From NCBI GenBank assembly GCA_041167565.1, contig JBEEHU010000004.1:10699-74698 (forward strand): a DNA stretch of 64,000 nt, read 5' to 3'. Each line of letters begins with the position of its first letter. The first letter of the stretch is position 1. Positions 13,351 through 51,500 of this stretch are shown piece by piece. This DNA comes from Verrucomicrobiota bacterium (GTDB lineage Bacteria; Verrucomicrobiota; Verrucomicrobiia; Chthoniobacterales; UBA10450). Position numbers and translations under genes: made by a program. A model generated the notes under the pieces. The model saw only the letters and a program-made list of their open reading frames with translations. It made no database searches and was not told the DNA's origin.

Positions 13351-13375
13351 ACGATCCTAAAAACGCGTAATCTAA

Positions 13376-15140: not shown

Positions 15141-15202
15141 CGACCCCGTCGGCTCTTCCTGATGCGTCCGAAGATCTGTGCGATGAAAGCAGCACGCCAG
15201 CA

Positions 15203-18298: not shown

Positions 18299-18379
18299 CA
18301 CTGCCAGCCGTGCCGGGAGATACTCGCCAGTGCCCATCGCTCCCGTAAGTTTCTCTGCTGCCGCCCTGCCTTCATCGAT

Positions 18380-24823: not shown

Positions 24824-24840
24824 CACTAGCGTCCGGTATC

Positions 24841-25566
24841 ATGAAGACAAAGCTGCTCGAGGATTTGCCGATAAAGATTTTCGCTGACGGCGCGGATCGT
24901 GAAGGCATCGCAGCGCTTTATGCGAAACCCTACATCAAAGGCCTCACAACTAATCCGACGTTGATGCGCAAGGTCGGCATTCCCGATTACGAAAAGTTCG
25001 CGCTAGCCGTCCTCGAGGTCGTGAAGGAGAAGCCGATTTCGTTCGAAGTCTTTTCCGATGAATTTCCGGAGATGCGCCGCCAGGCGCTCAAGATCGGAAA
25101 GTGGCAGGAGAACGTTTATGTTAAGATTCCCATCACCAATACCCGCGGTGAATCGGCGCTGCCCCTGATCCGGGAGCTGAGCGCTGAAGGCGTGAAATTG
25201 AATCTCACCGCGATCCTCACCCGCGAGCAGGTCCGGGGCGTTGCTGAGGCGGTTAGCCGTGAAGTTCCGTGCGTCGTCTCGGTCTTTGCCGGGCGCGTAG
25301 CGGATACCGGCGTCGATCCCATTCCACTCATGAAAGAGTCGCTGGAAATTTTGCGCGAACGTCCCGCGGCGGAACTGCTCTGGGCCAGTGTCCGCGAGGT
25401 GTTGAATATCTTTCAAGCCGCCGCCTGCGGTTGCCACATCGTGACGGTGCCGCACGACATTCTCGAAAAGGTAGCCAAGCTTGGCGGGATGGATTTGGCC
25501 GAGCTATCGCTGGATACCGTCCAAATGTTTCACCGCGACGCCGTAGCCGCCGGCTTCAAGTTATGA
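24841..25566 (+). CDS. transaldolase-family protein (short Fsa/TalC type)
   Basis: GLTTNPTLM and VYVKIPIT (Schiff-base Lys), 241 aa. Confidence 0.8.
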   Translation: MKTKLLEDLPIKIFADGADREGIAALYAKPYIKGLTTNPTLMRKVGIPDYEKFALAVLEVVKEKPISFEVFSDEFPEMRRQALKIGKWQENVYVKIPITNTRGESALPLIRELSAEGVKLNLTAILTREQVRGVAEAVSREVPCVVSVFAGRVADTGVDPIPLMKESLEILRERPAAELLWASVREVLNIFQAAACGCHIVTVPHDILEKVAKLGGMDLAELSLDTVQMFHRDAVAAGFKL

Positions 25567-26544: not shown

Positions 26545-27662
26545 GATTGCCCAACTTTCCATTCGTTACAGGCAGCGATCACATGATCCACTTCTGCATC
26601 AGTTAAAAAAGGATGGACCGGCAGGGATAGCTCGCACCGCGAAAACCGGCGGGCGTTGTCAGGCTGCACCGCATTCTGCCACGACCCTTTCGTTAGCGCC
26701 GTCTGCTCGGAAATAATGTGCGGATAATGGACGCCGGTCATAATGCCGCGAGTCTCGAGATGACTCCGAAGGTCATCGCGCGATCCTTCCGCGGCAAGGA
26801 TGGGGAAGAGATGCCAGACCGGAGCCATGGCGGAATCGGGCGCAAAAAGTTGAATCGAGGGATGCTTGATTCGGCTTAGATACTTTTGCGCCGTGCGTCG
26901 CCTCGCCTCCGTCCAGTTTTCGAGATTGGGCAGCAGGGCCGAGCGCAGCACCGCCGCGTGAATCTCATCGAGTCGGCTATTGAGGCCGAGCATGGAATGA
27001 ACGTAATGCTCGGTTTGTCCGTAATTGCGCAGAGTCCTGGCCGCGCTCGCGAGAGCAGCGTCATTTGTTAAGAGCGCGCCGCCATCCCCCATCGCTCCGA
27101 GATTTTTTGTCGGATAGAAACTGGTCGCCGCTACCTGACCTACTGTTCCCACGCCGCTGCCTCCATGAGACGCGCCGATGCTTTGCGCACAGTCTTCCAC
27201 TACGCGCAGTCCGAAATCTGCCTTCAGCCGCGCCAGCTCCTGCATTGGCAGGGGGAATCCATAAAGATGAACAGGCAGGAGAAAACGGATCGACCGGTCT
27301 TTCTCGAGGACCTCGCGACATTGCGCCAGATCAATACCGCCAAAGTCATCGACGTCGACGAAGACCAGCATCCCGCCAGCGCGCAGGATGGCGAGCGTCG
27401 TCGCGAACGCCGAGAGAGGCGTCGTCAAAACCTTCTCGCCCGGCTGCAGATCGAGACAGCGCAGACCGATCTCGATGGCGTCGAGACCATTGCCAGTCCC
27501 GACCGCATGAGATACGCCCCACGATTTTGCGAGAGCAATTTCGAAAGCTTCTACTTCTTTGCCCAGAATGTACCACCCGCTCGCGCCCACGCGCCGGACT
27601 GCGTCCAAGGCCGGTTCCTGCACGAACTTCCACTGCTGCTTGAAATCGTTCTGAAGAATCAT
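26541..27662 (-). CDS. DegT/DnrJ/EryC1/StrS-family sugar aminotransferase
   Basis: Trimmed to MILQNDFKQQWKF. SFYPTKNLGAMGDGG carries the PLP Lys. Confidence 0.85.
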   Translation of the reverse strand: MILQNDFKQQWKFVQEPALDAVRRVGASGWYILGKEVEAFEIALAKSWGVSHAVGTGNGLDAIEIGLRCLDLQPGEKVLTTPLSAFATTLAILRAGGMLVFVDVDDFGGIDLAQCREVLEKDRSIRFLLPVHLYGFPLPMQELARLKADFGLRVVEDCAQSIGASHGGSGVGTVGQVAATSFYPTKNLGAMGDGGALLTNDAALASAARTLRNYGQTEHYVHSMLGLNSRLDEIHAAVLRSALLPNLENWTEARRRTAQKYLSRIKHPSIQLFAPDSAMAPVWHLFPILAAEGSRDDLRSHLETRGIMTGVHYPHIISEQTALTKGSWQNAVQPDNARRFSRCELSLPVHPFLTDAEVDHVIAACNEWKVGQS

Positions 27663-27770
27663 TCCCACACTCCTGCCTGCGTGAGGATGTATCCGGTCAA
27701 TCCATAACCCAAACAAGAACGTTTTTCCGATTGGCAATCAGGCCGGCTTCTGTTCAATGCACTCAGCGTT

Positions 27771-33313: not shown

Positions 33314-33844
33314 ATGAAAACAAAACTCGCTCTCGCGGTGGCGATAACTGCTTTGCTATCGCTCACTACGGCCGGGTCGCTCCAGGCCAAGACCATTGAG
33401 TTCCCGGAAAAAGATCCGGCGTTTACTTTTACGATCCCGGATTCATGGACCACGGAGACGGGAAAAGACGGCCGCATCTATTGCACCGCTGAAGATGGCT
33501 TCAAGGTCGGCGTAGTTTCCTCGCCCGGGGTTAAGAGCGCGGAGGACGCGAAAGCGCTGCTGCCGAAAATAATCAAAGGCATGGCAGACGCGATGAAGTG
33601 CGAGAATTATAAGCCAGGGGAAGTCCATGCGCGGGACTTGCGCAACATGTGGATGAGCGTGATGCAGGCGCGCTGTCAGTCGGAGGGGACGGATATGTCG
33701 TTGAACGCCGTTGTCTTTTCCCTTAGCCCCGGCAAGTATTTTTCGCTGGTGGGAGCCTCGACGACAGCACTCGATAAAGCGCACGACAAAGCGCACGACA
33801 AAGACATGAACGAACTGATTCGCTCGATCAAAGCCGTTGAATAA
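33314..33844 (+). CDS. secreted protein, possible PsbP/DcrB-like fold
   Basis: Signal peptide MKTKLALAVAITALLSLTTAGSLQA, then KTIEFPEKDPAFTFTIPDSWTTE. Paralog of 33969-34484. Confidence 0.65.
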   Translation: MKTKLALAVAITALLSLTTAGSLQAKTIEFPEKDPAFTFTIPDSWTTETGKDGRIYCTAEDGFKVGVVSSPGVKSAEDAKALLPKIIKGMADAMKCENYKPGEVHARDLRNMWMSVMQARCQSEGTDMSLNAVVFSLSPGKYFSLVGASTTALDKAHDKAHDKDMNELIRSIKAVE

Positions 33845-33968: not shown

Positions 33969-34484
33969 ATGAGACTTACTCACATTACGATTGCCGCCTC
34001 TCTCTTTATCAGCGCCATCCTTCCTCTTCAGGCGAAAACGATCAAGTTCCCGGCCGACGATCCGGACTTTAGTTTCAAGTTGCCGGCAGGCTGGACGATG
34101 GAAGCGGACAAGGACGGCGATCTCGTTTGCAAATCGGGCGATGCGCCGGCCCTCACCCTCAACGTGAACAAGATGAACCAGGATTTTGCAAAGGTGAAAG
34201 AGCAGTTGTCCGATTTGGGGAAGACTTTCACGAAAGCGGCAAAGATGACGAACGTGGAATCGAAAGATCTCGGGGACGACACGAACAAGAACGGCGTCAA
34301 AGGATCGATCTACGTTGTAAAAGGCAAGTCGTCGGGCCAGGGCATCACGGCGGAGTTGTTGGCGATCGAGCCGAAAGATGGAGGCGACGCCTACTTCCTT
34401 ATGTTCAGCGGGCTCGCCACGGCGATGACCGCGCATGGCGATGATATCGGGTCGATCGTCGATTCCATCAAACCGCTGAAGTGA
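33969..34484 (+). CDS. secreted protein, paralog of 33314-33844
   Basis: Signal peptide ...ISAILPLQA, then KTIKFPADDPDFSFKLPAGWTME. Confidence 0.65.
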   Translation: MRLTHITIAASLFISAILPLQAKTIKFPADDPDFSFKLPAGWTMEADKDGDLVCKSGDAPALTLNVNKMNQDFAKVKEQLSDLGKTFTKAAKMTNVESKDLGDDTNKNGVKGSIYVVKGKSSGQGITAELLAIEPKDGGDAYFLMFSGLATAMTAHGDDIGSIVDSIKPLK

Positions 34485-35309: not shown

Positions 35310-35327
35310 CGTGTCTTAAAAAAAAGC

Positions 35328-35343
35328 TGGACAGATTTTTGCG
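35328..35343 (+). promoter_or_regulatory. candidate sigma-54 (-24/-12) promoter for the collar operon
   Basis: TGGacaG-attt-TTGCg with correct GG-N10-GC spacing, ~130 nt upstream of ATG 35474. A weak call. Confidence 0.25.
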
Positions 35344-35405
35344 CTCCAGATAACAACGACATCAGCGCCCCCCACAGGACGCTGTTTCGACGCGCGAGAC
35401 AGGAT

Positions 35406-35425
35406 GTGTTTTCTGGCGAAAACAC
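35406..35425 (+). other. perfect 8-bp hairpin in the putative 5' leader of the collar operon
   Basis: gtgttttc-tggc-gaaaacac, ~50 nt upstream of ATG 35474. Followed by an A-run, so not terminator-like. Confidence 0.35.
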
Positions 35426-35473
35426 CGCGAAAAAAGAACGAATCTCCCGCTAACCTCAACCGGCAAATCCACC

Positions 35474-35974
35474 ATGGCTGAACCATTCCTTTCCGAAATT
35501 AGAATCATGAGTTTCGATTTCGCGCCGAAAGGCTGGGCGCAATGCAACGGGCAACTGTTGCCGATCAACCAGAACCAGCCGCTTTTCTCACTCCTCGGCA
35601 CGACCTTCGGCGGCGATGGGCGAGTCAACTTCGCGCTGCCCGATCTTCGGGGAAACGTGCCGATCCATGTGGGCAGTGGTCACACGCTGGGAGAGAAAGG
35701 CGGCCAGCAGGCGCACACGATCACGAGCGCGGAAATGCCGACTCATACGCATCCTTGGAACGCCAACACCGCCGTCGGGACCGGTACTGCGCCCACGGGA
35801 GCGGTTTTGACTAAAGCTCCGGCAAATACGTACGCGGCGGCCGCTTCACTTGTCGCTTTGGCGCCAGCTACGATCTCGAATACGGGCGGCAGCCAGGCGC
35901 ATCTGAATATGCAACCGTTCCTGGTCCTGACTTTCTGCATCGCGCTCCAGGGAATCTTCCCGTCCCCAAACTAA
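35474..35974 (+). CDS. phage tail-collar domain protein (MdpB-like), paralog A
   Basis: MAEPFLSEIRIMSFDFAPKGWAQCNGQLLPINQNQPLFSLLGTTFGGDGRVNFALPDLRG ... GGSQAHLNMQPFL. Confidence 0.85.
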   Translation: MAEPFLSEIRIMSFDFAPKGWAQCNGQLLPINQNQPLFSLLGTTFGGDGRVNFALPDLRGNVPIHVGSGHTLGEKGGQQAHTITSAEMPTHTHPWNANTAVGTGTAPTGAVLTKAPANTYAAAASLVALAPATISNTGGSQAHLNMQPFLVLTFCIALQGIFPSPN

Positions 35975-35985
35975 GGAGAAAACTT

Positions 35986-36489
35986 ATGGCACAACCTTAC
36001 GTCGGTGAAATCAGAATGTTCGCGGGGAACTTTGCCCCGGCTGGGTGGATGTTTTGCGAAGGGCAATTACTTCCCATCTCGGAGAATGAAACGCTCTTTC
36101 AATTGATCGGCACGACCTATGGCGGTGATGGCCAATCGACCTTCGCCCTGCCGGATTTGCGCGGTCGGCTTCCGATGCATCAGGGTAACGGATTTATCCT
36201 GGCCGAAACTGGCGGCGCGGAGGAGGTCACTCTTACGGTGCAGCAAATTACGAGTCATGGCCATGCGGCAACAGGTTCCAGCGCTACAGCGACTAGCCAG
36301 ACTCCCACCAACCTGGTGCTGGCAGCGACACAGGCGACCACTTACTTCAATCTCGCTGATAACCCGGGAACGATGTCGCCTTTATCTATTGGTCCGATTG
36401 GCGGAAGTCAGCCTCATACGAACTTCCAGCCTTACCTGTGCGTCGATTTCATCATTTCACTCTTTGGCATTTTCCCGTCGCCAACCTAA
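35986..36489 (+). CDS. phage tail-collar domain protein (MdpB-like), paralog B
   Basis: MAQPYVGEIRMFAGNFAPAGWMFCEGQLLPISENETLFQLIGTTYGGDGQSTFALPDLRG ... GGSQPHTNFQPYL. The 11-nt spacer carries AAGGAG. Confidence 0.85.
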   Translation: MAQPYVGEIRMFAGNFAPAGWMFCEGQLLPISENETLFQLIGTTYGGDGQSTFALPDLRGRLPMHQGNGFILAETGGAEEVTLTVQQITSHGHAATGSSATATSQTPTNLVLAATQATTYFNLADNPGTMSPLSIGPIGGSQPHTNFQPYLCVDFIISLFGIFPSPT

Positions 36490-36500
36490 GGAGAATTATT

Positions 36501-37016
36501 ATGGCCGATCCATTTGTTGCTGAAATCAGAATCTTTCCCTTCAACTTTGCACCGAAAGGTTGGGCCTGGTGCGACGGACAGTTGATGCCGTTATCGCAGA
36601 ACACGGCCCTGTTCTCGCTGTTAGGCACCACTTACGGTGGCGACGGTAAGTCAAACTTCGCGCTTCCCGATTTGCAGGGCCGCGCCCCAATGCATCCCGG
36701 ACAAGGACCTGGACTATCACTGCATGATCTTGGCGAAACGGGCGGGTCCGAGACTGTCACGCTTCTGCAATCTGAGATCCCCGCCCATTCCCACGCGCTC
36801 CAAGGGGTCGAAGATGACGGGACATTCAAGACCCCGCAAAATATGTTTCTGGCAGGTGGCAACCAGATGTACCTCACGCCTCCGGTCATCAATACAAGTC
36901 TCGCGCCCCAAGCTGTGGGCCCCGCGGGCGGTGACCAGCCGCATAACAACATGCAGCCGTACCTGACTTTCTACTTCTGCATCGCGTTGCAGGGAGTGTA
37001 TCCGCCGAGGACGTAA
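36501..37016 (+). CDS. phage tail-collar domain protein (MdpB-like), paralog C
   Basis: Trimmed to MADPFVAEIRIFPFNFAPKGWAWCDGQLMPLSQNTALFSLLGTTYGGDGKSNFALPDLQG ... GGDQPHNNMQPYL. The 11-nt spacer carries AAGGAG. Confidence 0.85.
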   Translation: MADPFVAEIRIFPFNFAPKGWAWCDGQLMPLSQNTALFSLLGTTYGGDGKSNFALPDLQGRAPMHPGQGPGLSLHDLGETGGSETVTLLQSEIPAHSHALQGVEDDGTFKTPQNMFLAGGNQMYLTPPVINTSLAPQAVGPAGGDQPHNNMQPYLTFYFCIALQGVYPPRT

Positions 37017-37026
37017 AGACAGTGAC

Positions 37027-37050
37027 AAGTGACGAGTGACGTGTGACGAG
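37027..37050 (+). repeat. GTGAC-word 24-mer, direct-repeat copy 1
   Basis: aagtgacgagtgacgtgtgacgag. 23/24 identical to 37533-37556. Confidence 0.7.
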
Positions 37051-37062
37051 TTTGGCCGGACT

Positions 37063-37545
37063 ATGCCGGCTAGCTTATCATTGCGTCTTCGGCCGGTAAC
37101 GCCGGAGGACGATTCGTTTTTGGCCGGCCTGTATGCCAGCACGCGGGCGGAGGAATTGGCCGTCACCGGCTGGAGCGACGAAGACAAGGCGATCTTCTGC
37201 GGGAGACAATTCGATGCGCAGAGCGCGCATTACCGGGAACATTATCCCGGCGCTCTCTTGCAGGTCGTCGAGAGAGACGGTGTCGCGATCGGGAGATTGT
37301 ATGTGGCGCCTTGGGAACGCGAGATCCGCATCATGGACATCGCGCTCCTGCCCGAATTTCGCGGCGCCGGCATCGGCACGCAGCTCGTGCGCGCATTGCA
37401 AGATGAAGCGAGCTCAGCCGGCAAGACGCTCACGATCCACGTCGAGCGTTTCAATCCGGCCTTGCGGCTTTACGAGCGGCTCGGTTTCAAGATCGTTGAA
37501 GACAAGGGAGTGTATTTGCTGATGGAGGGGGGAAGTGACGCGTGA
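37063..37545 (+). CDS. GNAT-family N-acetyltransferase
   Basis: Trimmed to MPASLSLRLRPVTPED. Acetyl-CoA motif A EFRGAGIGTQLV, and NPALRLYERLGF. Confidence 0.8.
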   Translation: MPASLSLRLRPVTPEDDSFLAGLYASTRAEELAVTGWSDEDKAIFCGRQFDAQSAHYREHYPGALLQVVERDGVAIGRLYVAPWEREIRIMDIALLPEFRGAGIGTQLVRALQDEASSAGKTLTIHVERFNPALRLYERLGFKIVEDKGVYLLMEGGSDA

Positions 37546-37619
37546 CGTGTGACGAGCCGGGAAAGCCCGCGCCGGCCTTCTTCTTCAACACGTCACTCGT
37601 CACTGGTCACATGTCACTT
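37533..37619. terminator. long imperfect GTGAC-word hairpin between convergent genes (probable bidirectional terminator)
   Basis: Left arm aagtgacgcgtgacgtgtgacgag. The right arm acgtcactcgtcactggtcacatgtcactt has reverse complement aagtgacatgtgaccagtgacgagtgacgt. The result is a 24-bp stem with two 2-nt mismatches. The left arm contains the GNAT stop codon. Confidence 0.55.
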
Positions 37620-37624
37620 GCCCA

Positions 37625-37921
37625 TCAGTTAAACACTGCTTCGAAGGTGCTGCTGGTTTGGTCGGCGGCGATCTGGACGAGGAAGATTTCCATCTCGCCC
37701 AACTCCGCGTTACGCATTTTGTAAATGCCCTGCGGCAAACGGATCGGCCGCGATGCAATAAATGTGAGCGCGAACGGCCCACGGATCGATTCGAGCCGCG
37801 CGCCCAGAGGACGCGCTTCGGAAAGTTTCAGAGCCAGCGTGCCGTCAGGGAAAACGATTTCAAAATCCTGGTTCAGGCAGGCGGCGAATTGTTCGCATTC
37901 AACTTTGTCGAGCTCCAGCAT
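37625..37921 (-). CDS. small conserved-looking hypothetical protein (98 aa)
   Basis: MLELDKVECEQFAACLNQDFEIVFPDGTLALKLSEARPL...EIFLVQIAADQTSSTFEAVFN. No signal peptide. I vaguely recall a DUF family of this shape next to collar genes, but this is unverified. Confidence 0.55.
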   Translation of the reverse strand: MLELDKVECEQFAACLNQDFEIVFPDGTLALKLSEARPLGARLESIRGPFALTFIASRPIRLPQGIYKMRNAELGEMEIFLVQIAADQTSSTFEAVFN

Positions 37922-38065
37922 CAGAGAAGAATCTCACACAGAGTCCACAACGGTGCACAACGGAAAAATACGGGATGAATTTGGAAACCAGGAATCCATG
38001 AGGTGAATTCGGTTCTGCGTTTGTTCTTTTCCTGGTCTCCTGGCTTCCAGATTTATCCTTTGTGT
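37887..38065. repeat. copy 1 of the ~225-bp-period tandem duplication (5' region plus first codons of 37625-37921)
   Basis: aattgttcgcattcaactttgtcgagctccagcatcagagaagaatctcacac...ccagatttatcctttgtgt. Confidence 0.8.
37931..37948 (-). promoter_or_regulatory. degenerate copy of the 17-nt motif
   Basis: The reverse complement reads gtggactctgtgtgagat (14/17 to consensus), 9 nt upstream of ATG 37921. Confidence 0.3.
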
Positions 38066-38111
38066 CTCTTCGTGCCCGTCGTGTCAGGTCCCTCTTCCCG
38101 GCCAGGCCGCA

Positions 38112-38289
38112 AATTGTTCGCATTCAACTTTATCGAGCTCCAGCATCAGAGAAGAATCTCACACGAAGGTCACAACGGTGCACAACGATTCTGCGCGGAT
38201 GAATTTGGAAACCAAGAATCCATGAGGTGAATTCGGTTCTGCGTTTGTTCTTTTCCTGGTCTCCTGGCTTCCAGATTTATCCTTTGTGT
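38112..38289. repeat. copy 2 of the tandem duplication, with a truncated 20-codon duplicate ORF (38084-38146, minus)
   Basis: Near-identical to copy 1 except for a ~25-nt central patch. It carries ATG plus MLELDKVECEQF, then diverges to a stop after 20 codons. Confidence 0.8.
38156..38173 (-). promoter_or_regulatory. copy of the 17-nt motif
   Basis: The reverse complement reads gtgaccttcgtgtgagat, 9 nt upstream of the duplicated ATG at 38146. Confidence 0.3.
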
Positions 38290-38433: not shown

Positions 38434-39444
38434 ATGATCTCCGATCGCCGTTCTTTTCTCCGCGTCGGATCATTGCTGGTCTGTGGAAGCCTTCTGCGTC
38501 CCCGGTCGCTTTTTGCCCTCGGGGAGAAAACTCCCGGAGTCCTTTCGTTCGATGCGACGGAGATACGTCTCCTCGATTTCATCTCGAGCTACAGTTCGCT
38601 CGTTAGGCTCACCGGCGCTTCGGTCCTGGGCCATTTCAAACCGGAGAGCGGCTGCGGAATGCGCGTGCTCGTGCAGGTGACCGATTTCGCGAAGCTCGCC
38701 GAAGCGACGCTCCGCGCGCCCTTCAAGAGTTTTTATGCGAAGGCGAACTCGCTTTCCTTCGCTTCGCAGGGTAGCGGCCATGTGATCGAAAACCTGTCGC
38801 CGGTCGATTTCGGGGCGCGGGTTGCGCAGTTGACCAGCAACGAGAAAATCGTCTTCGCCCACGATGCGCTCAGCTACGATCCGATCGCGAAACAACTGGA
38901 CGATCCGCTGGAAAGCCTGAACGCGGGCGAGCTGAAACTCGTCAATCGTCCGACGAAAACTCCGGAGGCGTTGGCGGTCGCCATGCGCGGGACCGGAGAT
39001 GCGCGGGCGGCAGCGGTGCCGGAAGGAGAACCTTTTGCGACGTGGAAAGCGCAGTTGGTCAAATCGACCGCGCACCCGAAGGCCGCCTATCCGATCGCGG
39101 CAGCGTTTGTCCGCGGCCTGCCGGCATTCGTTGCGCTGGCCGGGACAGAGGACATGAAAAGCGCGATCGCCACGCCGTTGATTTCCAGTTCGGTCAAATC
39201 CGCGCTCGGGATGAGCGCGCGAAGCGCGATCGGGGAATTCGACCGGGTGCGCGAGATTTTTGGTCAATCGTACTCCGACGGCGCGGTCTGGCTTTACGTA
39301 GTGCTCGGCAAGCAGGTGAAAAAGGACACGCGCGGCTGGGTCGACGCCGCTCTTCTGGAGGATGTCTATTGGCGGGAAGCGTTCGACAACGCGAGCCGGA
39401 TCGAGCAGGCGTTCCAGTCGCCGGAACTCAGATCAAAGGCGTGA
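38434..39444 (+). CDS. Tat-signal hypothetical protein
   Basis: Trimmed to MISDRRSFLRVGSLLVCGSLL (twin-arginine-like S/D-R-R-x-F-L). I recognise no domain. Confidence 0.6.
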   Translation: MISDRRSFLRVGSLLVCGSLLRPRSLFALGEKTPGVLSFDATEIRLLDFISSYSSLVRLTGASVLGHFKPESGCGMRVLVQVTDFAKLAEATLRAPFKSFYAKANSLSFASQGSGHVIENLSPVDFGARVAQLTSNEKIVFAHDALSYDPIAKQLDDPLESLNAGELKLVNRPTKTPEALAVAMRGTGDARAAAVPEGEPFATWKAQLVKSTAHPKAAYPIAAAFVRGLPAFVALAGTEDMKSAIATPLISSSVKSALGMSARSAIGEFDRVREIFGQSYSDGAVWLYVVLGKQVKKDTRGWVDAALLEDVYWREAFDNASRIEQAFQSPELRSKA

Positions 39445-39546: not shown

Positions 39547-42500
39547 TTGAAATCTCAAATTAAGTTGTCCGACCTGGTCACCCAGCTTCGCGCCCGCGCC
39601 GGTGGCGCGCTGTTCGCGCTGGCTTTGCTCGGCGTAATGGCGATGCCGTCTTTCGCGGTCGCGACGCCCACGGTGACGGCGACGAAGGAAGCTACAACCG
39701 CGGGCGGTCCGGGCGGGTCAACCACGGCCGGTGGAACGATTGACTATAAGGTCACGATCAAGAACACGAGTGGGAGTGAAACCGCCGTCGGCGTTTCCCT
39801 GACGGATCCTCCGCCGGGACACACGGTCGATGTGGCTGGGTCGTTAAAGGTCTCGCCCCTCGCGTTTCCAGACGCCTATGACGCGAGCAAAAATAACCCG
39901 CTGCACGTCAACGCGACCCCTTCCGGCCTCCTCGCCAATGACAAAGGGCTTCCCACGCCCAGCGCGGTTGCGAACAGTGGGACAACGTCTCAAAATGGCG
40001 GGTTCACGGTATTCACAGACGGCAGCTTCGATTACAATCCGCCCAACAACTTTACCGGAACGGACACGTTCACTTACACGGTAACCAATACCCAACTGCC
40101 TAACGACACGGCGACCGTCACCCTGACCGTTCAGCAAGCGCCGGTCATCACGAGCGCGAATAATACTGCTTTCAAACTTAATACGGCGGGAACCTTCACT
40201 GTAACCACGACTGGCTTCCCGACCGGAGCCAGCATGGTTATCAGTGAAACCGGAGCGCTGCCCGGTGGAGTAAGTTTCGTGAATAACAACGACGGGACGG
40301 CGACCCTGGCAGGAACTCCGACCGCCAGTGGCAGTTTCCCAATCACCATTACGGCCAACAACGGCGTGACGCCGAACGCGACGCAGAACTTCACCCTGAC
40401 CGTTCAGCAAACACCCGCCATCACGAGCGCGAATAACACTACCTTCAAGGTCGGCACGGCCGGCACCTTCTCGGTCACTACGACTGGCTTCCCGACCAAT
40501 GCCAGCATGGCCATCAGCGAGACCGGCGCGCTGCCGAGTGGAGTGACTTTCGTCAATAACAATAATGGCACGGCTACGCTGGCGGGAACGCCTGCCGTGG
40601 GCACTGGTGGCACCTATCCCTTGACCATCACCGCCAGCAATGGAGTCTCGCCCGATGCGACCCAGAGCTTCACCCTGACCGTCCAGCAAGCGCCCGCCAT
40701 CACGAGCGCGAATAATACTACTTTCAAACTTAATACGGCAGGAACCTTCACTGTAACCACGACGGGCTTCCCAACCAATGCCAGCATGGCCATCAGCGAA
40801 ACCGGAGCACTGCCCGGTGGAGTAAGTTTCGTGAATAACAATGACGGCACGGCGACCCTGGCGGGCACTCCGACCGCCAGTGGCAGTTTCCCGATCACCA
40901 TTACGGCCAACAACGGCGTGACGCCCAACGCGACGCAGAACTTTACCCTGACCGTTCAGCAAGCGCCCGCCATCACGAGCGCGAATAACACGACCTTCAA
41001 GGTCGGCACGGCTGGGACCTTCTCGGTCACTACGACTGGCTTCCCGACTAATGCCAGCATGGCCATCAGCGAGGCCGGCGCGCTGCCGAGTGGAGTGACT
41101 TTCGTTAATAACAATAATGGCACGGCTACGCTGGCGGGAACGCCTGCGGCGGGCACTGGTGGCACCTATCCCTTGACCATCACCGCGAGTAACGGAGTTA
41201 CGCCCGATGCGACCCAGAGCTTCACCCTGACCGTTCAGCAAGCGCCCGCGATCACAAGCGCGAATAACGTCACGTTCACGACTGGCATCGCCGGGACCTT
41301 TAGCGTGACGACGACGGGCTTCCCGACCAATGCCAGCATGGTAATCAGCGAGAGCGGGGCGTTGCCTGGCGGCGTGACGTTTGTGAACAACAACGACGGC
41401 ACGGCAACGCTTGCCGGGACACCTGGCGCCAACACGGGCGGCACCTACCCGCTTGTCATCACGGCCAACAATGGAGTAACGCCGAACGCGACCCAGAACT
41501 TTACGCTTACTGTGAACCAGCCGCCGGTCGCCTCGGCTGACAATCCTGGCATAATCGATGCGAATACAACGCTCACCGGATTATCCTCCGGTCCGACGAA
41601 TTTGCTCACGAACGATTCGCGCGGATTCCCGATCGCCAACATCAGCTCCTATGGCGGCGGATCGATGGGTGGCTCCGTCACCGACCATGCCGCGGGCACG
41701 ACAACTACTCCGCTGCCAACCTTCGCGTCCGGTTCGATCGTGGTGAACGCCAACGGGAGCTATACCTTTACTCCGCCGACTGGCTTTACGGGCACCTACA
41801 CGTTCCAGTACCGGTTGAGCAATGTCGCGGGCAACTCGGACGCGACGGTCACGGTGCAAGTGCGGCCCAAGGCAGTCAACGATACCTTTGGTCCTCCCAA
41901 TGTCATCGGTAACGTCAGTATCGACATCGCCACCTCGGTCTTCCTCGCCAACGACATCTACAACAGTCCGGTGACCTTTAATCTGGTCAGTAACGCGACG
42001 GCCCAGGGCGGAAGTATTACCATCGCCGGCAGCACCCTTACCTATAATCCGCCGAGAGGTTATGAAGGCGCCGATACCTTCACTTATACCATCACGGACA
42101 ACAGTACGTTTACTTCTACCTCGGCCACCGTGACTATGAACGTGAGCGGGATGATCTGGTTTATTAACAACAACGCCGGCGCCTGCTCGTCGAACTGCGA
42201 TGGGCGTCTTTCGAATCCTTATACCACCCTCGCCGCCTTCAACACCGCCAATGCCCTGGCCGGCGGACTTAATCCAGACATCAACGACAACATCTTTGTC
42301 TACGAGAGCGCTGCCGGTTACTCCGGCGCGGTGACGTTGCGGACGGGCCAGAAATTGATCGGCCAGGACGCGACGGCAACCCTCGCCACCATTACTGGTC
42401 TTACCGTCCCGAGCGGCAGTACATTGCCCGCGATGAACAGCGGCAATGCCACGGTTACGAACATTACCACCAGCACGGTGACGCTAAACACCAACACGAC

Positions 42501-45500
42501 TGTAAGAGGACTTCAGATCAATTCCACGACGAGCACAGGCATGAACGACCCGGGTGCCGCCATTACGGGAGTAAGTGTGAGCGAGGTGAGTATCGCCACC
42601 ACGAGCGGCACTGGAGTTGTTTTCTCCGGCACCGCTGGAACACTAACCTTCACCGGGCTGACAACGTCCGGTGGCACCGGCGCGAATCTGGTGGGCAACG
42701 GCAGCGGCACGTTCAATTTCTCAAACGTGGTGATCAGTTCGGGTGTCAATGCAGGTTTCATCGCCACCGGAGGGGGCACGGTCAACGTTACCGGTGCGAC
42801 CAATACGATCACCACCACGACTGGGACTGGCGTCAACATTGCGACTCCAACTGACATTGGCGGGAGCGGCGTGACCTTCAAGAGCGTTACCGTCAGCAAC
42901 GGCGCATCGAACAGCGCGGTGAATGGCATTATCCTCAATGGCACCACGGGCGCATTCACTGTGACCGGCGATGGCGCGACCAGCGGCGGATTCCTCGTCG
43001 AAAATGGAACGGGCGGGACCATCCAAAAAACGACCGGCGATGCGGTGTCGTTGACGAATGCGTCCAACGTGACGCTACGGCAGATGAGGATCACGAGCCC
43101 GGCGCTTGATGGCGTCAAAGCGACGGGCGGCGGCACTATTAAACTCTCCGCCGTTTTCATCAACACACCGGGCGCGTCGAACCCGGCTGCGGGTGGTGAC
43201 GGATTCGGCACAGGTAATGGCGTCCGACTCGAGAACGTTACTGGGGTCAACGCGATGGATAATAACTCGCGCATCACGAACTGGCAGGCATCGCAATCGA
43301 ACGCCTTCCTACTCCATAACACGGGCACGAACTTTACCTCGTTGACCTTCGACCATTCTAAGATCGACACGTCTGCGACCGGCGCGCCAGGCTTTCACTC
43401 GAACCTGAATGGCGCGACGACTGGTGCGGTGACGATAACGAATACGGAATTCACGCTCATCGACCAGAACGCGGCGCAGGTCATCAACAACGGTTCGGGG
43501 ACTATTCGTACAATCGTGCAGGGCAATAATTTCCACGATGCCGACGGGACCGCCGGCGACGGCAACAACACATTGTTCTTGTCGAATAGCCACGAGGGGC
43601 ACCACAACTTCACCATTGGCGGGGCGGGCGCGCTAGGTAACACCTTCCACAACCTGGCGCGGTTGACCACGCTTGCCGGCGTCGTACAGGTGGATTGCGC
43701 GGGTGGCGACGGCAGCACGCCGGCTGGTGGCACGATCAACGGCACGATCACCAACAACAACATCTGGAACGATGCCGGTTTCGTAAACGGCCGCCGCGCG
43801 ATAGACGTTCAAGTCGAGGCGGACTCGCACAATCTGGGACAGCTGGCCGTCGCCATCACCAACAACACGGTTAACAACGTCCAGGGCAATGCGATTCACG
43901 TCTCGGTCGTCTCGGTCGGTGGCGGCAGCGTTACCGACGCGAACTGGACTATCACCGGGAACAGCCTCGGCGCCGCTGGAACCAACAACGGTATTCGAGT
44001 TGGCCTTGATAATACGGACAGCTCTTCGGCAATCGAGTTCGAGACCAATGTCGATGTTATTGCGAGCAGCAATGCGGTGCTGGGCAACAAGCTTCTGGTT
44101 TCCGGCAACACCGGTGTCAATTCGGCGAATAACGCGACCGGCGGCACCTTGGATATCACAAATATCGGGTCAAGCGGAGCGAGCGGCAGTGCCACACTCC
44201 ACGCGACGATCACGAACAATACTCTGACCAACGTCGACACGGCGGGCACGGGCCACGTGCTCGATGTTCTAAACAGCAGCGCCAGCAGTCACGAAACTCT
44301 CAACCTGAACATCACCGGCAACAATACGACGTTGGGCGCTTCGGCGGCGGGCGAAATCCGACTGCGCCAGCTGGCTGGCACCTACAACATTCAAGGCGGA
44401 ATCGCGGCGGTGAGCGCGAACAACAGTGGAGATACGGTGAACACTACGGGAACCTTCGGAACCGTCGGCTCCGTGCTAACACCGACCAACCCGTCGTTCC
44501 TCATCCTAGCACCCGGTGGTATTGATGCGCGCACTCCGGCCGCTTCATTCTCCTCACACCCGGCGATCGCGGATGAAGCTAAGCTCCGGGGTATTGTTCC
44601 CGCATTCCCCTCCGCGATCCAAGGCGTCGCCGATCCGCGGCAGCAATCCAGAGTCCACTCGTCGGGTATACTCACACAGGAGCGACTCGATTCGCTTGTC
44701 GCTGCCGCGATTGCGCGCTGGCAGGCAACAGGTTTGACCGCGAGACAACTCGGGGTCCTGCTTAGCCTAAAGTTCGAAGTTGGCGCTCTGGCCGCCTTAC
44801 ATCTTGGCGAAGCGAATGGCAATTTGATTCGCGTGGACAAGAACGGGGGCGGGAATGGGTGGTTCGTCGGCAACGATGACGCTCAATTCGCAACTAACGT
44901 GTCGGGTGAGCGTGGTTACACCGACCCGACAAGCGCACCGGCCGGACGAATTGATCTGCTGACGACGATCATGCACGAGATGGGTCATGCCCTGGGTCTC
45001 CCCGATAGCTACGATGAGAAGGACCGCGACAAGGTGATGTATGGCTTCCTGACCACTGGCGAGCGCCGCGTTCCTGCTGCTGGCGACGCCGTTGGCGCGA
45101 AACCCAATGCTCAAACCACGCCGCAGTTCCTCGCGTCTCCGGCTGCGAGCGACAAGTACACGATCGGCGATATCCCGCCCGGGAAGACGGTTGTCGTTAC
45201 CTTCCAGGTCCAGGTCGAGAATCCGCTGAGCCCGACAAGCACAACCCAGATCTCCAATCAGGGGACCGTCAGCGGAACTAACTTCGCCACGGTTAATGGC
45301 GTCCCCGTCGCCAATCCGAACACCGACTCCGATAATCCGCCCGCCGGAGCGGCCGACCCGACCATCACTCTACTCTGCGCCAATCCAGCGACGGTCACTA
45401 CGAATGCGGATGCCGGGGCTGGTTCGTTGCGTCAGGCATTAATCGATGTCTGCGACGGTGGCACGATTACATTCTCGAACACCACGGCGGGGGGTGCGGT

Positions 45501-48500
45501 GAACTTCTACGATGGCAGTCCGCATACCATCACGTTGGCGAGTGAGTTAGTCGTCGGCAAAAATGTTACCATCAATGGCCCAGGCGCGAACGTTCTCACC
45601 GTCGGAGGCAACAACATCTTTAGATTGGTGAACATAACACTGCCGGCCAGCGGCACGGCAACCATCCAGGGTCTGTCGTTCACGGGAGGCAGGGCTGATC
45701 CGGCCGGCGCCGGCACGAACGGCGGCGCGATCGAGTTCAATAGCGTGGGGACGCTCAACCTGAATAACTGCGAATTTTTTGCCAACACCAAGACGGCGGC
45801 CGGAGACGTCATCTTTTCCAGTGCGGCAGCCAGGTTGAATATTAACGGCTGCGCGTTCCGAAATAATACGACGGAAGTCGTTATCCACATCGGCAGCACG
45901 CCTGCGACGATCGTTAATTCCACCATTTCAAATAACACGGCCCTGGCGGTGCGCGTCGATGGTGGCCCAGCGGTGGGCGTGACTAATTGCACCATCGCGA
46001 ATAATAGCGTGGGCGGCATTGGCCTTGCCCCTGGCGGCGGCGGCACCGTGACGCTCACGAACACCATCCTGAGTCAGAACAATGGAAATGACCTCACCCG
46101 GACTGACGCGGATTGCTCCGGGAACCAGAAGTTTAACTCGGGCGGTCACAACCTGATTGACGACGCCACCAGCTCGAAACTCTGCAACAGTCCGCAGCCG
46201 GGGGACCTACTCGGCGCGGCCTTTGACCCGCTCCTCGGCAGCCTGGCCGGCAATGGCGGACCAACTCAGACGCGTCTTCCTGCACTGGGCAGCCAGGTAA
46301 CCAATGCGGCGGCTGACTGGACGACCCTCAGCAGCAACATCGATAACGTCCAAACCACAATTACCGTCGCAGACCCCAGCGGTATCACGGTTGGTTCCAC
46401 CATCCGCATTGACCTTGAACAGATGAGCGTGACTGCTGTGGTCAGTAATACCCTTACGGTGACGCGCGGCGCCAACGCCACCACCGCTGCCGCGCATACC
46501 AGCGGAGCAGGTGTGAGTTCGGCCTTCGATCAGCGCGGCTTCCCGCGCAAGGTCGGAGCCGCGGTCGACATCGGCGCGGTGGAAACCAACTTCACCATAA
46601 CTACTACTGCGGGCACGCCGCAGAGCACGAAGGTAAACACAGCGTTCCCGGTGGCATTACAGGCGACGGTCAAGGAATCGGGCACGGCGCTGAGTGGTGT
46701 TTCAGTTACCTTCACGCCGCCCGCCAGCAACGTAGCTAGTGGGACCGCGACAACCAATCCTGCGACGACAAACGGCAGCGGGGTGGCGTCGACTGCCTTC
46801 ACGGCCAACGCGATCGCGGGCGGACCTTACATCGTGGCGGCCAGTGTAACAGGGCTTGCCTCGACTGCTGACTTCTCGCTTACCAATACGCCGCCTACCG
46901 TTACCATCGATCAGGCTTCGGGCCAGGCCGATCCGACTGCGGTTTCGCCGATCAACTTCACGGTAGTGTTTTCCGATCCGGTGACTGGCTTTGGTTCGGG
47001 CGGGGTGACCTTAAGCGGCACGGCCAATCCAACGGCTGCGGTCGTGACCGGTTCCGGCACCACCTACAACGTCGCCGTGAGCGGCATGACTGCGCAGCCC
47101 GGGACAGTGATAGCTACGGTAAACGCCGGCGCCGCTACTGACGGCGGAAGTAATGCGAACCTGGCTTCTACTTCGACCGATAACACTGTTACTTACGACA
47201 CTCCGCCTTCTGTGACGATCAACCAGGCCTCCGGCCAGGCTGATCCGACCAATGTCTCGCCGATCAACTTTACGGTCGTGTTTTCTGAGGCGGTGACAGG
47301 ATTCGGGTCGGGGGGCGTGGACCTTAGCGGCACGGCTAACCCAACGACCGCCGTAGTGACGGGTTCCGGTACGACCTACAACGTCGCAGTGAGCGGAATG
47401 AGTGCCCAAGGAACTGTGATAGCCAGCGTAAAGGCTGGCGCGGCGACCGACCCGGGCCTGAATCCAAACACAGCTTCGACCTCCACGGACAACACCGTAA
47501 TTTACGATAGCGTGCAGCCCACGGTCGCGATCAACCAGGCTTCCGGTCAGGCTGACCCGACCAATATTTCACCGATCAACTTCACGGTTGTCTTCTCCGA
47601 GGCGGTAACAGGCTTTGGCTCGGGCAGTGTGACCTTGTCCGGCACCGCGGGAGCGACAACGAAGGTGGTGACGGGTTCCGGGAATACCTACAACGTGGCA
47701 GTGAGCGGGATGACCGGCGACGGCACGGTGATTGCGACCGTCCCGGCTGGAGGAGCAACGGACGCGGCGGGGAACACGAATGCGGCTTCCACCTCTGCCG
47801 ATAACACCGTGACCTACGATACGACGAAACCTGACGTCACCATCAACCAGGCCTCCGGCCAGGCTGACCCGACCAATGCGTCGCCAATCAACTTCACCGT
47901 TGTCTTCACCGAAGCGGTCACGGGGTTTGGTTCTGGGAGCGTGACCTTGTCCGGCACGGCGGGCGCGACGACGAAAGTGGTAACAGGTTCGGGAACTACC
48001 TACAACGTGGCGGTAAGCGGGATGACCAGCGACGGCACGGTGATCGCGACCGTTCCGGCCGGAGGAGCCGCAGACGCAACTGGCAATACTAATAATGCGT
48101 CCAGTTCGACCGATAACACAGTCACCTACGACGTGACGAACCCGAGCGTAACGATCAATCAGGCATCCGGCCAGGCTGATCCGACCAACGCTTCGCCGAT
48201 CAATTTCACGGTCGTGTTTTCTGAGGCGGTGACAGGATTCGGATCGGGCGGAGTAACTCTCAGCGGCGCAGCCAACCCAACGACCGCCGTAGTGACGGGT
48301 TCCGGTACGACCTACAACGTCGCAGTGAGCGGAATGAGTGCCCAAGGAACTGTGATAGCCAGCGTAAAGGCTGGCGCGGCCATCGACTCGGGTTCTAATC
48401 CAAACACAGCCTCGACCTCCACGGACAACACCGTCACTTATGACAGCGTGAAACCCGCGGTGATGATTAATCAGGCCTCCAGTCAGGCTGACCCGACCAA

Positions 48501-51500
48501 TGCGTCGCCGATTAACTTCACGGTTGTTTTCTCCGAGGCGGTAACAGGCTTTGGCTCGGGCAGTGTGACATTGTCCGGCACAGCGGGCGCCACAACGAAA
48601 GTGGTGACGGGCTCCGGGAATACCTACAACGTGGCGGTAAGCGGGATGACCAGCGACGGCACAGTGATCGCCACTGTGCCGGCGGGAGGAGCAGCGGACG
48701 CGGCCGGGAACACTAACGCGGCTTCCACCTCCGCGGATAACACCGTGACCTACGACACCACGAAACCTGACGTCACGATCAATCAGGCCTCCGGCCAGGC
48801 TGATCCGGCTGGTGCTTCACCGATCAATTTCACGGTCGTCTTCACTGAATCGGTCACAGGGTTTGGTTCGGGCAGTGTGACCTTGTCCGGCACAGCGGGG
48901 GCGACGACGAAAGTGGTGACAGGTTCCGGGACCACCTACAACGTGGCGGTAAGCGGGATGACCAGCGACGGCACGGTGATCGCGACCATTCCGGCAGGAG
49001 GAGCAGCCGACGCGGCAGGGAACACTAATAGTGCGTCCAGTTCGACCGATAACACGGTCACCTACGATGGGACGAAACCGAGCGTAACGATCAATCAGGC
49101 ATCCGGCCAGCCAGATCCGAGTAATGCTTCGCCGATCAACTTCACGGTCGTCTTCACTGAATCGGTCACAGGGTTTGGCTCGGGCAGTGTGATCTTGTCC
49201 GGGACAGCGGGCGCGACGACGAAAGTGGTGACAGGGTCCGGGACCACTTACAACGTGGCCGTGAGCGGGATGACGAGCGACGGCACGGTGATCGCGACCG
49301 TGCCGGCGGGAGGCGCAACGGATGCGTCGGGGAACACGAACACGGTTTCGACCTCGACGGATAACACGGTCACCTATGATACGCTGAAACCCGCGGTGAT
49401 GATTAATCAGGCCTCCACTCAGGCTGACCCGACGAATGCGTCACCGATTAACTTCACGGTTGTTTTCTCCGAGGCCGTAACAGGCTTTGGTTCTGGTAGT
49501 GTGACTTTATCCGGCACCGCGGGTGCGACGACGAAAGTGGTGACAGGCTCCGGGACGACTTACAACGTAGCGGTGGGCGGGATGACCAGCGACGGCACGG
49601 TGATCGCCGCCGTGCCGGCGGGAGGAGCAGCGGACGCGGCGGGGAACACTAATGCGGCTTCCACCTCTGCCGATAACACCGTGACCTACGATACGACGAA
49701 ACCTGACGTCACCATCAACCAGGCCTCCGGCCAGCCAGATCCGACCAATGCTTCGCCGATCAACTTCACCGTTGTCTTCGCCGAAGCGGTCACAGGGTTT
49801 GGTTCTGGGAGCGTGACCTTGTCCGGGACAGCGGGCGCGACGACGAAAGTGGTAACAGGTTCGGGAACTACCTACAACGTGGCGGTAAGCGGGATGACCA
49901 GTAACGGCACGGTGATCGCGACCGTTCCGGCCGGAGGAGCAGCGGACGCGGCGGGGAACACTAATAATGCGTCCAGCTCAACCGATAACACGGTTACCTA
50001 TGATGGGACGAAACCTGGTGTGACGATTAACCAGGCATCCGGCCAGGCTGATCCTGCGAATGCTTCCCCGATCAATTTCACGGTCGTGTTCTCCGAGCCG
50101 GTCACCGGCTTTACGGGCAGCGGCGTGACCTTGTCCGGGACAGCGGGTGCGACCAGCAAGGTCGTGACCGGTTCCGGAGCCACCTATAATGTGGCTGTCA
50201 GCGGCATGACTTCACAGGGAACGGTCATTGCCACTGTCGCAGCGGGAAGCGCAGCGGATACGGCCGGGAACACGAACACGGTTTCCAGCTCGACCGATAA
50301 CACCGTGACCTACGACAATGTGCAGCCTTCGGTTAGTATTAACCAGGCATCCGGCCAGACTGATCCGACCAATGCTTCACCGATCAACTTCACGGTCGTC
50401 TTCTCCGAGTCGGTGACAGGGTTTGGTTCTGGGAGCGTGACCTTGTCCGGAACGGCGGGTGCCACGACGAAGGTGGTGACGGGCTCCGGGACAACCTACA
50501 ACGTGGCGGTAAGCGGAATGACCAGCAACGGGACAGTGATCGCCACGGTGCCGGCGGGAGGCGCCGCGGACGCAGCCGGCAATACTAATACCGTGTCCAC
50601 CTCAACCGATAACAGTGTTAACTACGATTCGACCCAGCCGAGTGTGACCATTAACCAGGCCGCTGCTCAATCGGATCCGGCCAATGCTTCACCGATCAAC
50701 TTTACGGTCGTCTTCTCCAAGCCGGTCGCAGGGTTTGGTTCCAGCGGCGTGGCCCTGTCCGGCACGGCGGGCGCGACGACGAAGGTCGTAACAGGCTCTG
50801 GCGCCACCTACAATGTCGCGGTAAGCGGGATGACCAGCGACGGCACGGTGATTGCAACGGTTCCGGCGGGCAGCGCGGCCGACTCTGCTAACAATACTAA
50901 CACGGCGTCCACGTCGACCGATAACACGGTGACCTACGACACGGGGAACCCGAGCGTAACGATCAATCAGGCCTCCGGCCAGGTTGATCCGACCAACGCT
51001 TCGCCCATCAATTTTACGGTGGTGTTCTCCGAGGTGGTCACTGGCTTTAGCGGCAGCGGCGTGACCTTGTCCGGGACAGCGGGAGCGACCAGCAAGGTCG
51101 TAACCGGTTCCGGCACGACCTACAACGTAGCTGTCAGTGGCATGACTTCACAGGGAACGGTCATCGCCAGTGTGGCGGCCGGTGCGGCCGCGGATGGAGC
51201 CGGTAACACGAATAACACCTCCACTTCGACTGATAACACCGTCACCTATGACAATGTGCAGCCTTCGGTCACCATTAACCAGGCCTCCACGCAATCTGAT
51301 CCGACCAATGCTTCACCGATCAACTTCACGGTCGTCTTCTCCGAGTCGGTCACCGGCTTTAGTGCGAGTGGGGTGACTTTATCCGGGACAGCCGGTGCGA
51401 CCTCAAAAGTGGTGACAGGATCCGGGACGACTTACAACGTTGCTGTCAGCGGCATGACATCGCAAGGAACAGTGATAGCCACGGTGCCGGCGGGAGGAGC

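Follow-up and report, generated by a model that had tools for sequence, protein, structure and literature searches.

What do three consecutive genes for tail-collar proteins do on a bacterial chromosome, and do they belong to a phage, to three separate fibres, or to a system of the host cell itself? This question is raised by a stretch of 64,000 nucleotides (referred to here as the window; positions 10,699 to 74,698 of the forward strand of contig JBEEHU010000004.1, assembly GCA_041167565.1) from a Verrucomicrobiota metagenome-assembled genome, in which a 303-kb contig carries the proteins MEY2518465-69. The three collar proteins, referred to as ColA, ColB, and ColC, are followed by a GNAT N-acetyltransferase and a small protein of the family DUF6916, and these genes recur in seven phyla as a phage-free cassette comprising a giant surface protein, the collar triplet, the N-acyltransferase, DUF6916, and often a Tat-targeted partner. 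The best reading of the triplet is that of a distinct bacterial clade representing a domesticated, lectin-like phage receptor-binding tip.

The three collar genes lie on the + strand and encode 166 aa (ColA, 35474..35974), 167 aa (ColB, 35986..36489), and 171 aa from the ATG at 36501 (ColC, 36501..37016). An original prediction, made from the letters of the sequence, had described three tandem MdpB-like collar paralogues with N- and C-terminal signature motifs and no signal peptide; its coordinates are exact, and all of these features were recovered. An hmmscan-type check assigned the three proteins to Pfam Collar (PF07484) with E values of 1.5e-26, 9.5e-30, and 2.5e-27 for ColA, ColB, and ColC, respectively, all well over the 24-bit cut-off, and their IMG name, “microcystin-dependent protein,” corresponds to COG4675 (MdpB). 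Briefly, the chain as seen in ColA consists of the collar domain, an HxH motif, a variable head, and a C-terminal GGSQAHLNMQPFL strand, and pairwise identity among the three is 48–50%. Only six residues precede the collar domain and the N-terminal fibre shaft is absent, such that the proteins represent a bare tip; their N-termini (Met-Ala-x-Pro) are ~99% conserved. The histidines H91 and H93 of the HxH motif are invariant in ColA, ColB, and ColC and ~90% conserved in orthologues. The central part, predicted to differ completely over ~60 aa, is divergent over only ~40 residues (~96–137), between the invariant HxH and the GGSQxHxNxQP strand, and ColC has five extra residues (PGLSL) past the collar domain in the paralogue alignment. 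Two coupling spacers on the + strand separate the genes, TAAGGAGAAAACTTATG at 35972..35988 and TAAGGAGAATTATTATG at 36487..36503, each with an 11-nt gap in which the stop codon overlaps the Shine-Dalgarno sequence (TAAGGAG...ATG). The predicted spacing of exactly 11 nt thus holds for both spacers of the window and is not a conserved trait: across 63 triplets surveyed, the modal spacing is 9–13 nt, the spacers mostly contain TAAGGAG, TAGGAG, or TGAGGAG, and those of Bacteroidota are long. On the basis of their sequences, ColA, ColB, and ColC are three anciently diverged paralogues in fixed order whose translation appears tightly coupled.

Relatives of the triplet were collected by a scan of one genome per species, which yielded at least 572 loci; the best 80 of these, with 68–77% identity to ColA, were annotated with profiles built for the purpose. 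They are distributed over Verrucomicrobiota, Acidobacteriota, Bacteroidota, Chloroflexota, Actinomycetota, Gemmatimonadota, and Alpha-, Beta-, and Gammaproteobacteria (seven phyla), and the order ColA-ColB-ColC is kept in 72 of the 80. Partner genes were counted in the 51 loci whose flanks extend for 4 kb or more on either side of the triplet, a GNAT being scored up to 4 kb from the triplet and a giant open reading frame (ORF), defined as one of 1,000 aa or longer, up to 3 kb from it. GNAT is present in 50 of these 51 loci, DUF6916 in 46, and a giant ORF adjoins the triplet in 49; all three occur together in 44, and no further family is conserved across more than eight loci. The co-conservation of the GNAT and the small ORF with the triplet, which the prediction had put forward for a genome survey, is thereby borne out. 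By contrast, the 4,699-aa protein of the window and its 336-aa Tat-signal protein had been listed as mere neighbours; because a giant ORF is adjacent in 49 of the 51 loci, the 4,699-aa protein is part of the conserved neighbourhood, and the Tat-signal protein, a kind that recurs inside cassettes, belongs to it as well.

Isolates illustrate this arrangement as well. On plasmid pAA01 of Aminobacter aminovorans, three “tail fiber” genes are accompanied by genes for proteins of 4,158 and 494 aa, a GNAT, and a DUF6916-like protein of 91 aa; the triplet of Ruegeria sp. TM1040 has as its companions a giant protein annotated as “choice-of-anchor D,” a GNAT, and proteins of 405 and 97 aa. In Paenibacillus sp. 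37 the triplet occurs with a GNAT and an Ig-like giant protein, and Deinococcus ficus is a further isolate with the cassette. In alphaproteobacterial cassettes, a protein of 405–494 aa stands between ColC and GNAT (Mesorhizobium, L008 9063-10385; Aminobacter, L097 15071-16555; Ruegeria, L105 11126-12343); the Mesorhizobium copy matches Pfam Beta-prop_PLL, the Aminobacter and Ruegeria copies share its motifs, and a SapC-family gene then follows in the Mesorhizobium and Aminobacter cassettes. An obvious Tat-signal protein is absent from all three. Furthermore, several variants contain other modifying enzymes, namely a cupin and 2OG-Fe(II) oxygenases in Azospirillum oryzae (L106 12237-14909), a formyltransferase in the place of GNAT in Spirosoma oryzicola (L107 11128-12081), and an Asp/Asn beta-hydroxylase and a sulfotransferase beside the cassette genes of locus L103 (2283-4527). 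Enzymes of this sort hint at post-translational modification being an intrinsic part of how the system works.

The pattern of divergence differs between the parts of the cassette. Over the 80 loci, median identity to the window proteins is 71.6% for ColA, 73.2% for ColB, 74.8% for ColC, 52.7% for GNAT, and 33.8% for DUF6916, and ColB homologues with 77–88% identity are found in Pyrinomonadaceae (Acidobacteriota), Sphingomonadales, Bradyrhizobium, Mesorhizobium, and Enterovirga. Within the collar proteins, column conservation is 0.92–0.96 in the collar and the return strand versus 0.42–0.45 in the head, and Nei-Gojobori dN/dS is ~0.12 in the core and 0.7–0.9 in the head. These values, obtained near saturation, are suggestive of relaxed or perhaps diversifying selection on the head. 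Synonymous divergence of the collar core is less than 1 between members of different phyla, and in many carriers the cassette is located on megaplasmids, with a collar gene at three places per record in most of the plasmid matches listed; the low synonymous divergence and the megaplasmid location therefore point to horizontal spread of the cassette. Each paralogue has an orthologue group to itself, and the triplication is therefore older than this spread.

PHROG tail-protein families match the collar proteins at internal parts of far longer tail proteins, and the trustworthy sequence relatives in the PDB are phage tail fibres, i.e., 8kec (E 5e-9), T4 gp12 (1ocy, 1pdi, 5iv5), 9qgo, and 9nxk; the three proteins are therefore regarded as bare fibre tips without a shaft. 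In the alignment with 8kec, a long tail fibre, the two HxH motifs coincide, which suggests a putative metal-binding site, and a weak match to Gp10_C was additionally obtained in Pfam; matches to the MS2 coat protein in the PDB search were weak and look spurious. ColB homologues form more than 8,000 protein clusters. Public annotation refers to such genes as “tail fiber protein” or “phage tail protein,” and such triplets have been given as phage regions in earlier genome papers, in keeping with the idea that they are the leftover tail-fibre genes of a decaying prophage or tailocin without present function. This idea is already contradicted and retains next to no probability, given the strong purifying selection on the collar core described above, the identity of 72–75% over seven phyla alongside the same non-phage partners, and the distance from phages themselves, the best identity to a homologue in a cultured-phage collection of 50,697 records being 39%. 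Moreover, phage structural genes are found neither in the window nor among the conserved neighbours. No such gene is present among the 20 largest other ORFs of the window, which encode aminosugar and polysaccharide enzymes, an aldolase/SDR fusion, an AMP-binding enzyme, a PLD-like protein, and proteins of general metabolism or without a Pfam match; sheath, tube, baseplate, capsid, integrase, and lysis genes are absent among the Pfam-annotated neighbours in ten loci; and the flanks of the 80 related loci contain no conserved tail, baseplate, or capsid genes. The earlier statement that the locus is not a prophage is thus upheld by the lack of phage structural genes in the window, the non-viral neighbours, and the chromosomal context.

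If the triplet is a bacterial device, the next question is whether its three products act as one complex. By analogy with the collar triplets of virophages, ColA, ColB, and ColC probably assemble 1:1:1 into a single pseudo-threefold trimer, in which a metal ion on the axis would be bound by the six histidines of the HxH motifs, in the manner of T4-type tips. The heterotrimer is well motivated because orthologues are more similar across phyla (72–75%) than paralogues are to one another (48–50%), because the order is fixed in 72 of the 80 loci, because duplications always involve the whole triplet, and because there is a virophage precedent. The duplications comprise two or three tandem copies in two genome loci (L040, L041) and two IMG/VR contigs (L092, L093), with up to nine collar genes in L093, and lone amplification of a single collar gene was never seen among the annotated loci. 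Head lengths are near equal in the three paralogues (45–53 residues). In the precedent, from Dishui Lake virophage 2 (DSLV2), a tag on one of three consecutive PF07484 proteins co-purifies all three as a complex of ~55 kDa, against 58.3 kDa expected for a heterotrimer, which forms 16-nm fibres and binds cyanobacterial cells (PMC12724248). On the other side stands the weak covariation of head lengths in the bacterial proteins (rho 0.39 for A-B and none for the other pairs); the AlphaFold2 model of the ColB monomer, built on an alignment of 33 sequences, is unusable (pLDDT 42.5) and favours neither a heterotrimer nor homotrimers.

The products may instead be three separate homotrimeric fibre-tip lectins, each with its own specificity in the manner of T4 gp12 and gp37, the genes standing in tandem only for co-expression. 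T4 gp12 is a homotrimer, it is among the PDB tail-fibre matches of the collar proteins, and the weak covariation of head lengths is compatible with such proteins. Furthermore, one virophage homotrimer was fairly stable in simulation (PMC12724248). Separate lectins are nonetheless unlikely, given that 72 of 80 loci have each type once and in the same order, and in view of the restriction of duplication to whole triplets, the coupling of stop codon and Shine-Dalgarno sequence, which favours equimolar synthesis, and collar interface regions that are paralogue-specific yet 92–96% conserved across phyla; additionally, the virophage triplet is a demonstrated heterotrimer (PMC12724248). A separate observation concerns protein P0140 (282 aa, truncated, source unlabelled), in which a ColB-like chain is joined to a ColA-like chain via SGGGS; the fusion may be natural, in which case hetero-assembly would gain support, or the sequence may have been engineered or be an artefact.

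The partners of the triplet were characterized individually. The GNAT N-acetyltransferase (37063..37545, + strand) comprises 160 aa from its ATG, with an in-frame GTG at 37036, and matches Acetyltransf_1 with an E value of 2.4e-14, consistent with the earlier call of a GNAT after the triplet. Its best PDB relatives are weak and include several N-terminal acetyltransferases. The N-termini of the collar proteins begin with Met-Ser or Met-Gly in other GNAT-linked variants and with Met-Asp or Met-Glu in the formyltransferase-linked Spirosoma variant. It is conceivable, if rather doubtful, that the GNAT blocks an amino group of the module, for which the invariant Met-Ala N-termini at the base of the collar trimer would be the candidate.

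The small ORF facing the GNAT gene (37625..37921, – strand) encodes 98 aa and had been described as being of unknown function; it belongs to DUF6916 (PF21880), with an E value of 2.3e-22 and 79.3 bits versus a cut-off of 27. Its convergent orientation, correctly stated for the window, is a detail of the lineage and not a property of the cassette. The AlphaFold2 model of the protein is a six-stranded beta-barrel with an N-terminal helix (pLDDT 94); a PilZ-like small barrel recurred among the fold matches and was rejected, its TM of 0.40–0.45 being too weak. The family PF21880 contains 1,277 clusters at 50% identity. A profile search returned only close Verrucomicrobiota relatives, and among three informative contigs with distant members, two also carry collar and GNAT genes, one of these two additionally encoding the Asp/Asn hydroxylase and the sulfotransferase. 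An apparent DUF6916 fusion in protein P0294 (2,565 aa) is a repeat artefact.

The giant secreted protein of the window (39547..53646, + strand) has 4,699 aa and, on Pfam and sequence evidence, comprises an N-terminal signal-like segment, Big_9/Cadherin_5 domains, a beta-helix (~aa 870–1640), twelve Big_12 repeats, and a duplicated C-terminal domain. Over 537 aa, this beta-helix shares 65.5% identity with the giant protein encoded in a Mesorhizobium cassette. After the beta-helix, a matrixin-like HEMGH motif (HEMGHALGLPDSYD) occurs at aa 1810 (~44974), with a weak Peptidase_M10 match (E 0.004), and the segment of aa 1650–1950 is conserved in several other cassette giants. The Pfam domains of other giants are Cadherin_4/5, Big_9, Calx-beta, CLIPPER, and He_PIG.

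Neither a twin-arginine motif nor a signal peptide is present in ColA, ColB, ColC, GNAT, or the 98-aa DUF6916 protein. The Tat-signal proteins of the cassettes suggest a possible route out of the cell. In the window, a protein of 336 aa (38434..39444, + strand) carries an N-terminal twin-arginine motif of the S/T-R-R-x-F-L-K type ahead of a hydrophobic segment (MISDRRSFLRVGSLLVCGSLL...; MISDRRSFLRVGSLL...); it has no Pfam or PDB match and holds the same position in six Verrucomicrobiota loci. Many cassettes encode a second, longer DUF6916 paralogue (~145–220 aa) with a canonical SRRxFLK twin-arginine signal, for example MSVSRRKFLRTGAV..., MNLTRRNFLRAGTV..., and MNISRRKFLGAATT... at the N-terminus. 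In Proteobacteria and Thermoanaerobaculia, a Tat-signal family of 200–270 aa is located between ColC and GNAT, of which the subgroups gA and gB are related to each other (hhalign probability 95%); Chloroflexota cassettes have a Tat-signal protein of ~400 aa, and Deinococcus has one of 386 aa annotated as an ABC substrate-binding protein. These other Tat-signal proteins were tried as hidden DUF6916 homologues, and both hmmsearch and hhalign were negative. Tat-like ORFs number 64 of 2,321 inside cassettes versus 9 of 1,780 outside, two regular expressions detect them in 45–52 of ~87 loci, and in the distant cassette L101 tatA/B genes are situated two genes away. The Tat pathway exports folded, oligomeric proteins, including partners that lack a signal, and the cytoplasm is where phage fibre tips fold, which makes hitch-hiking an attractive way out for the trimer. 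By this analogy, it is tentatively proposed that the trimer may be exported in the folded state through Tat on the Tat-signal protein of its cassette, a possibility of limited likelihood. Apart from the signal-less collar proteins, this proposal is burdened by the roughly one third of cassettes in which a Tat-signal protein is not detectable, and by the Mesorhizobium-type cassette, which has the PLL-like beta-propeller and no obvious Tat protein.

The same absence of signal peptides from ColA, ColB, ColC, GNAT, and the short DUF6916 protein would also fit a module that never leaves the cytoplasm. It might help to assemble the giant protein or control its quality, or act as a sensor or decoy resembling fibre tips, while the Tat-signal and giant proteins acted separately in the envelope. 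The Microcystis relatives MrpA and MrpB, found as abundant cellular proteins, and the occurrence of COG4675 proteins beside housekeeping enzymes in soil metaproteomes are compatible with such a location. It is difficult to see, however, why a factor for assembly inside the cell should have a hypervariable tip, and a Tat-targeted DUF6916 paralogue recurs, Tat-like ORFs are enriched in cassettes, and all inspected giant partners look extracellular; as for a role in defence, no PADLOC model of an anti-phage system matches the five core proteins. A purely cytoplasmic module is consequently considered improbable.

Taken together, these data lead to a model in which the window carries one copy of a horizontally spread cassette built on a domesticated phage receptor-binding tip. 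Since all chains lack a signal peptide, the ColA/ColB/ColC trimer would fold in the cytoplasm, and the GNAT would acetylate an amino group of the module, the Met-Ala N-termini being candidates. The folded trimer would then leave via Tat, carried by Tat-DUF6916 in many lineages and by the 336-aa protein here. Outside the cell, the hypervariable head would bind a surface glycan or another ligand, and the near-invariant collar base would dock on a partner, most plausibly the giant protein. The parts of this model differ in strength. That the triplet is a functional, phage-free fibre-tip module of the heterotrimer type, working with a co-conserved giant surface protein and accessory genes, has about an even chance of being correct. 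That head and base together form a recognition or adhesion device, the head binding a ligand and the base docking on the giant protein, falls somewhat short of this. The complete scheme, i.e., a mobile cassette whose cytoplasmic heterotrimeric tip is modified by a dedicated N-acyltransferase, hitch-hikes through Tat on Tat-DUF6916 or an analogous carrier, and is mounted on a giant adhesin as an exchangeable and hypervariable recognition head, is offered as speculation and is, as a whole, unlikely to hold in every part.

Further observations weigh against the model. Head dN/dS is below 1 in most pairs, exceeding 1 in a quarter to a third, and these estimates were made near saturation. The GNAT does not qualify as RimI, the ribosomal protein S18-alanine N-acetyltransferase, scoring 38.8 bits against a cut-off of 86.4 for NCBIfam TIGR01575; it is a generic GNAT, and a formyltransferase replaces it in Spirosoma. 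Searches with the DUF6916 fold against the PDB and BFVD returned nothing at E <0.01, and contig L099 has a distant DUF6916 gene without collar genes. Finally, the cassette giants are modular, and the conserved beta-helix is found in only some of them.

Collar genes named “tail fiber” are routinely annotated as phage remnants, and a clade among them forms a bacterial cassette that is under strong selection, has been transferred widely, and is common in soil bacteria (Verrucomicrobiota, Acidobacteriota, and rhizobia). If the model is true, the cassette would encode a bacterial organelle for recognition at the cell surface, of a kind not recognised before, and its trimer would represent a new class of Tat cargo, one that is structural and non-redox. 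Furthermore, it would provide a function for COG4675 and DUF6916, would explain the role of at least some giant Ig/cadherin proteins, and would imply that phage receptor-binding tips, and not whole tails only, have been domesticated.

The upstream and intergenic sequences of the window contain additional elements. An upstream element, AAAAAAAGCTGGACAG-N4-TTGCG...GATAACAACG (35321..35360, + strand), lies ~130–150 nt before ColA and was aligned in five Verrucomicrobiota relatives; it includes TGGACAG-N4-TTGC at 35331-35345, with sigma-54-like GG-N10-GC spacing, and may represent a lineage-specific promoter. As a feature of the cassette in general, the sigma-54-like motif was rejected: it does not recur upstream of ColA in other phyla, with 2 occurrences in 63 regions (background 0.029). 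Tandem GTGACNN heptads with 3–4 copies each occur at 37021-37052, 37533-37556, and 37587-37620, only around the GNAT gene; all seven matches to GTGACGWGTGACG in the 64 kb are at this gene, versus 0.16 expected. The GNAT gene is flanked by the arms of a 32-nt inverted repeat (88% complementary), and the stop codons of the convergent GNAT and DUF6916 genes have a local hairpin between them. Heptads, inverted repeat, and hairpin are probably a REP-like or bidirectional-terminator element, and the heptads were dismissed as a cassette feature, since relatives have them at other intergenic positions. Additionally, a ~225-nt tandem duplication (37878-38065 / 38103-38289, 92–99% identical) has copied the first 15 DUF6916 codons and their upstream region into the divergent space before the Tat-signal gene, and a second, truncated DUF6916 start (MLELDKVECEQFAA) is therefore present. 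No Rfam match was obtained in 33–40 kb.

Upstream of the collar genes, 33314-33844 and 33969-34484 encode adjacent paralogous small proteins of 176 and 171 aa (26% identical, E 1e-15), which have N-terminal signal-like segments, the common sequence AKTIxFPxxDPxFxFxxPxxWTxExxKDG, and no Pfam match. Farther upstream of the cassette, a cluster for aminosugar and polysaccharide biosynthesis (~9200–27700) comprises two DegT-type aminotransferases, two epimerase/dehydratases, a GT2, a GHMP kinase, and PhyH-like dioxygenases.

Several known systems resemble parts of the cassette. With respect to export, the Tat hitch-hikers of Escherichia coli (hydrogenase-2 HybO/HybC and DmsAB) likewise include signal-less, folded cofactor subunits encoded beside a twin-arginine partner; the likeness is by analogy alone, and a third of the collar cassettes have no obvious Tat protein. 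The T4-type tips (gp12, gp37, and the C-terminal part of gp10) share with the window proteins the collar, the aligned HxH, and a variable head between the collar and the return strand, whereas the T4-type proteins are long homotrimers with an N-terminal shaft anchoring them to the baseplate and the window proteins are three paralogues of 166–171 aa. The COG4675 proteins RhiB of Rhizobium leguminosarum (rhiABC) and MrpB of Microcystis belong to the same family and are stand-alone, phage-free, and abundantly expressed. RhiB carries the collar domain, and RhiA and RhiC are without a Pfam domain (PMC13133039). RhiB and MrpB have been associated with quorum or infochemical signalling and cell contact, MrpA/B being linked to the extracellular glycoprotein MrpC and to cell-cell contact, and COG4675 proteins are present in soil metaproteomes. 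In rhiABC, a single collar gene is flanked by RhiA and RhiC under quorum-sensing control, whereas the window has a triplet with GNAT and DUF6916; linkage to GNAT, DUF6916, or a giant protein is not reported for rhiABC.

In the papers searchable here, neither a bacterial collar cassette nor DUF6916 is described or mentioned. The original statement that the function of stand-alone collar triplets is unassigned therefore holds for bacteria as far as this literature reaches and no longer holds for virophages, whose heterotrimeric triplets were described in 2025. DSLV2, of the Aquatic Virophage 1 lineage, likewise has three consecutive co-oriented PF07484 genes, with products of ~19 kDa (~170–180 aa) and a variable head, whose 1:1:1 heterotrimeric fibre binds material of the cell surface (J Virol 2025, PMC12724248), and by description it matches the window in gene number, size, domains, and arrangement. 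The virophage genes adjoin capsid genes and their products are parts of the virion, whereas the window is chromosomal, contains no virus, and surrounds the triplet with GNAT, DUF6916, Tat, and giant-protein partners. The cassette, which itself appears to be undescribed, thus appears to be the bacterial version of the recently described heterotrimeric collar-triplet module.

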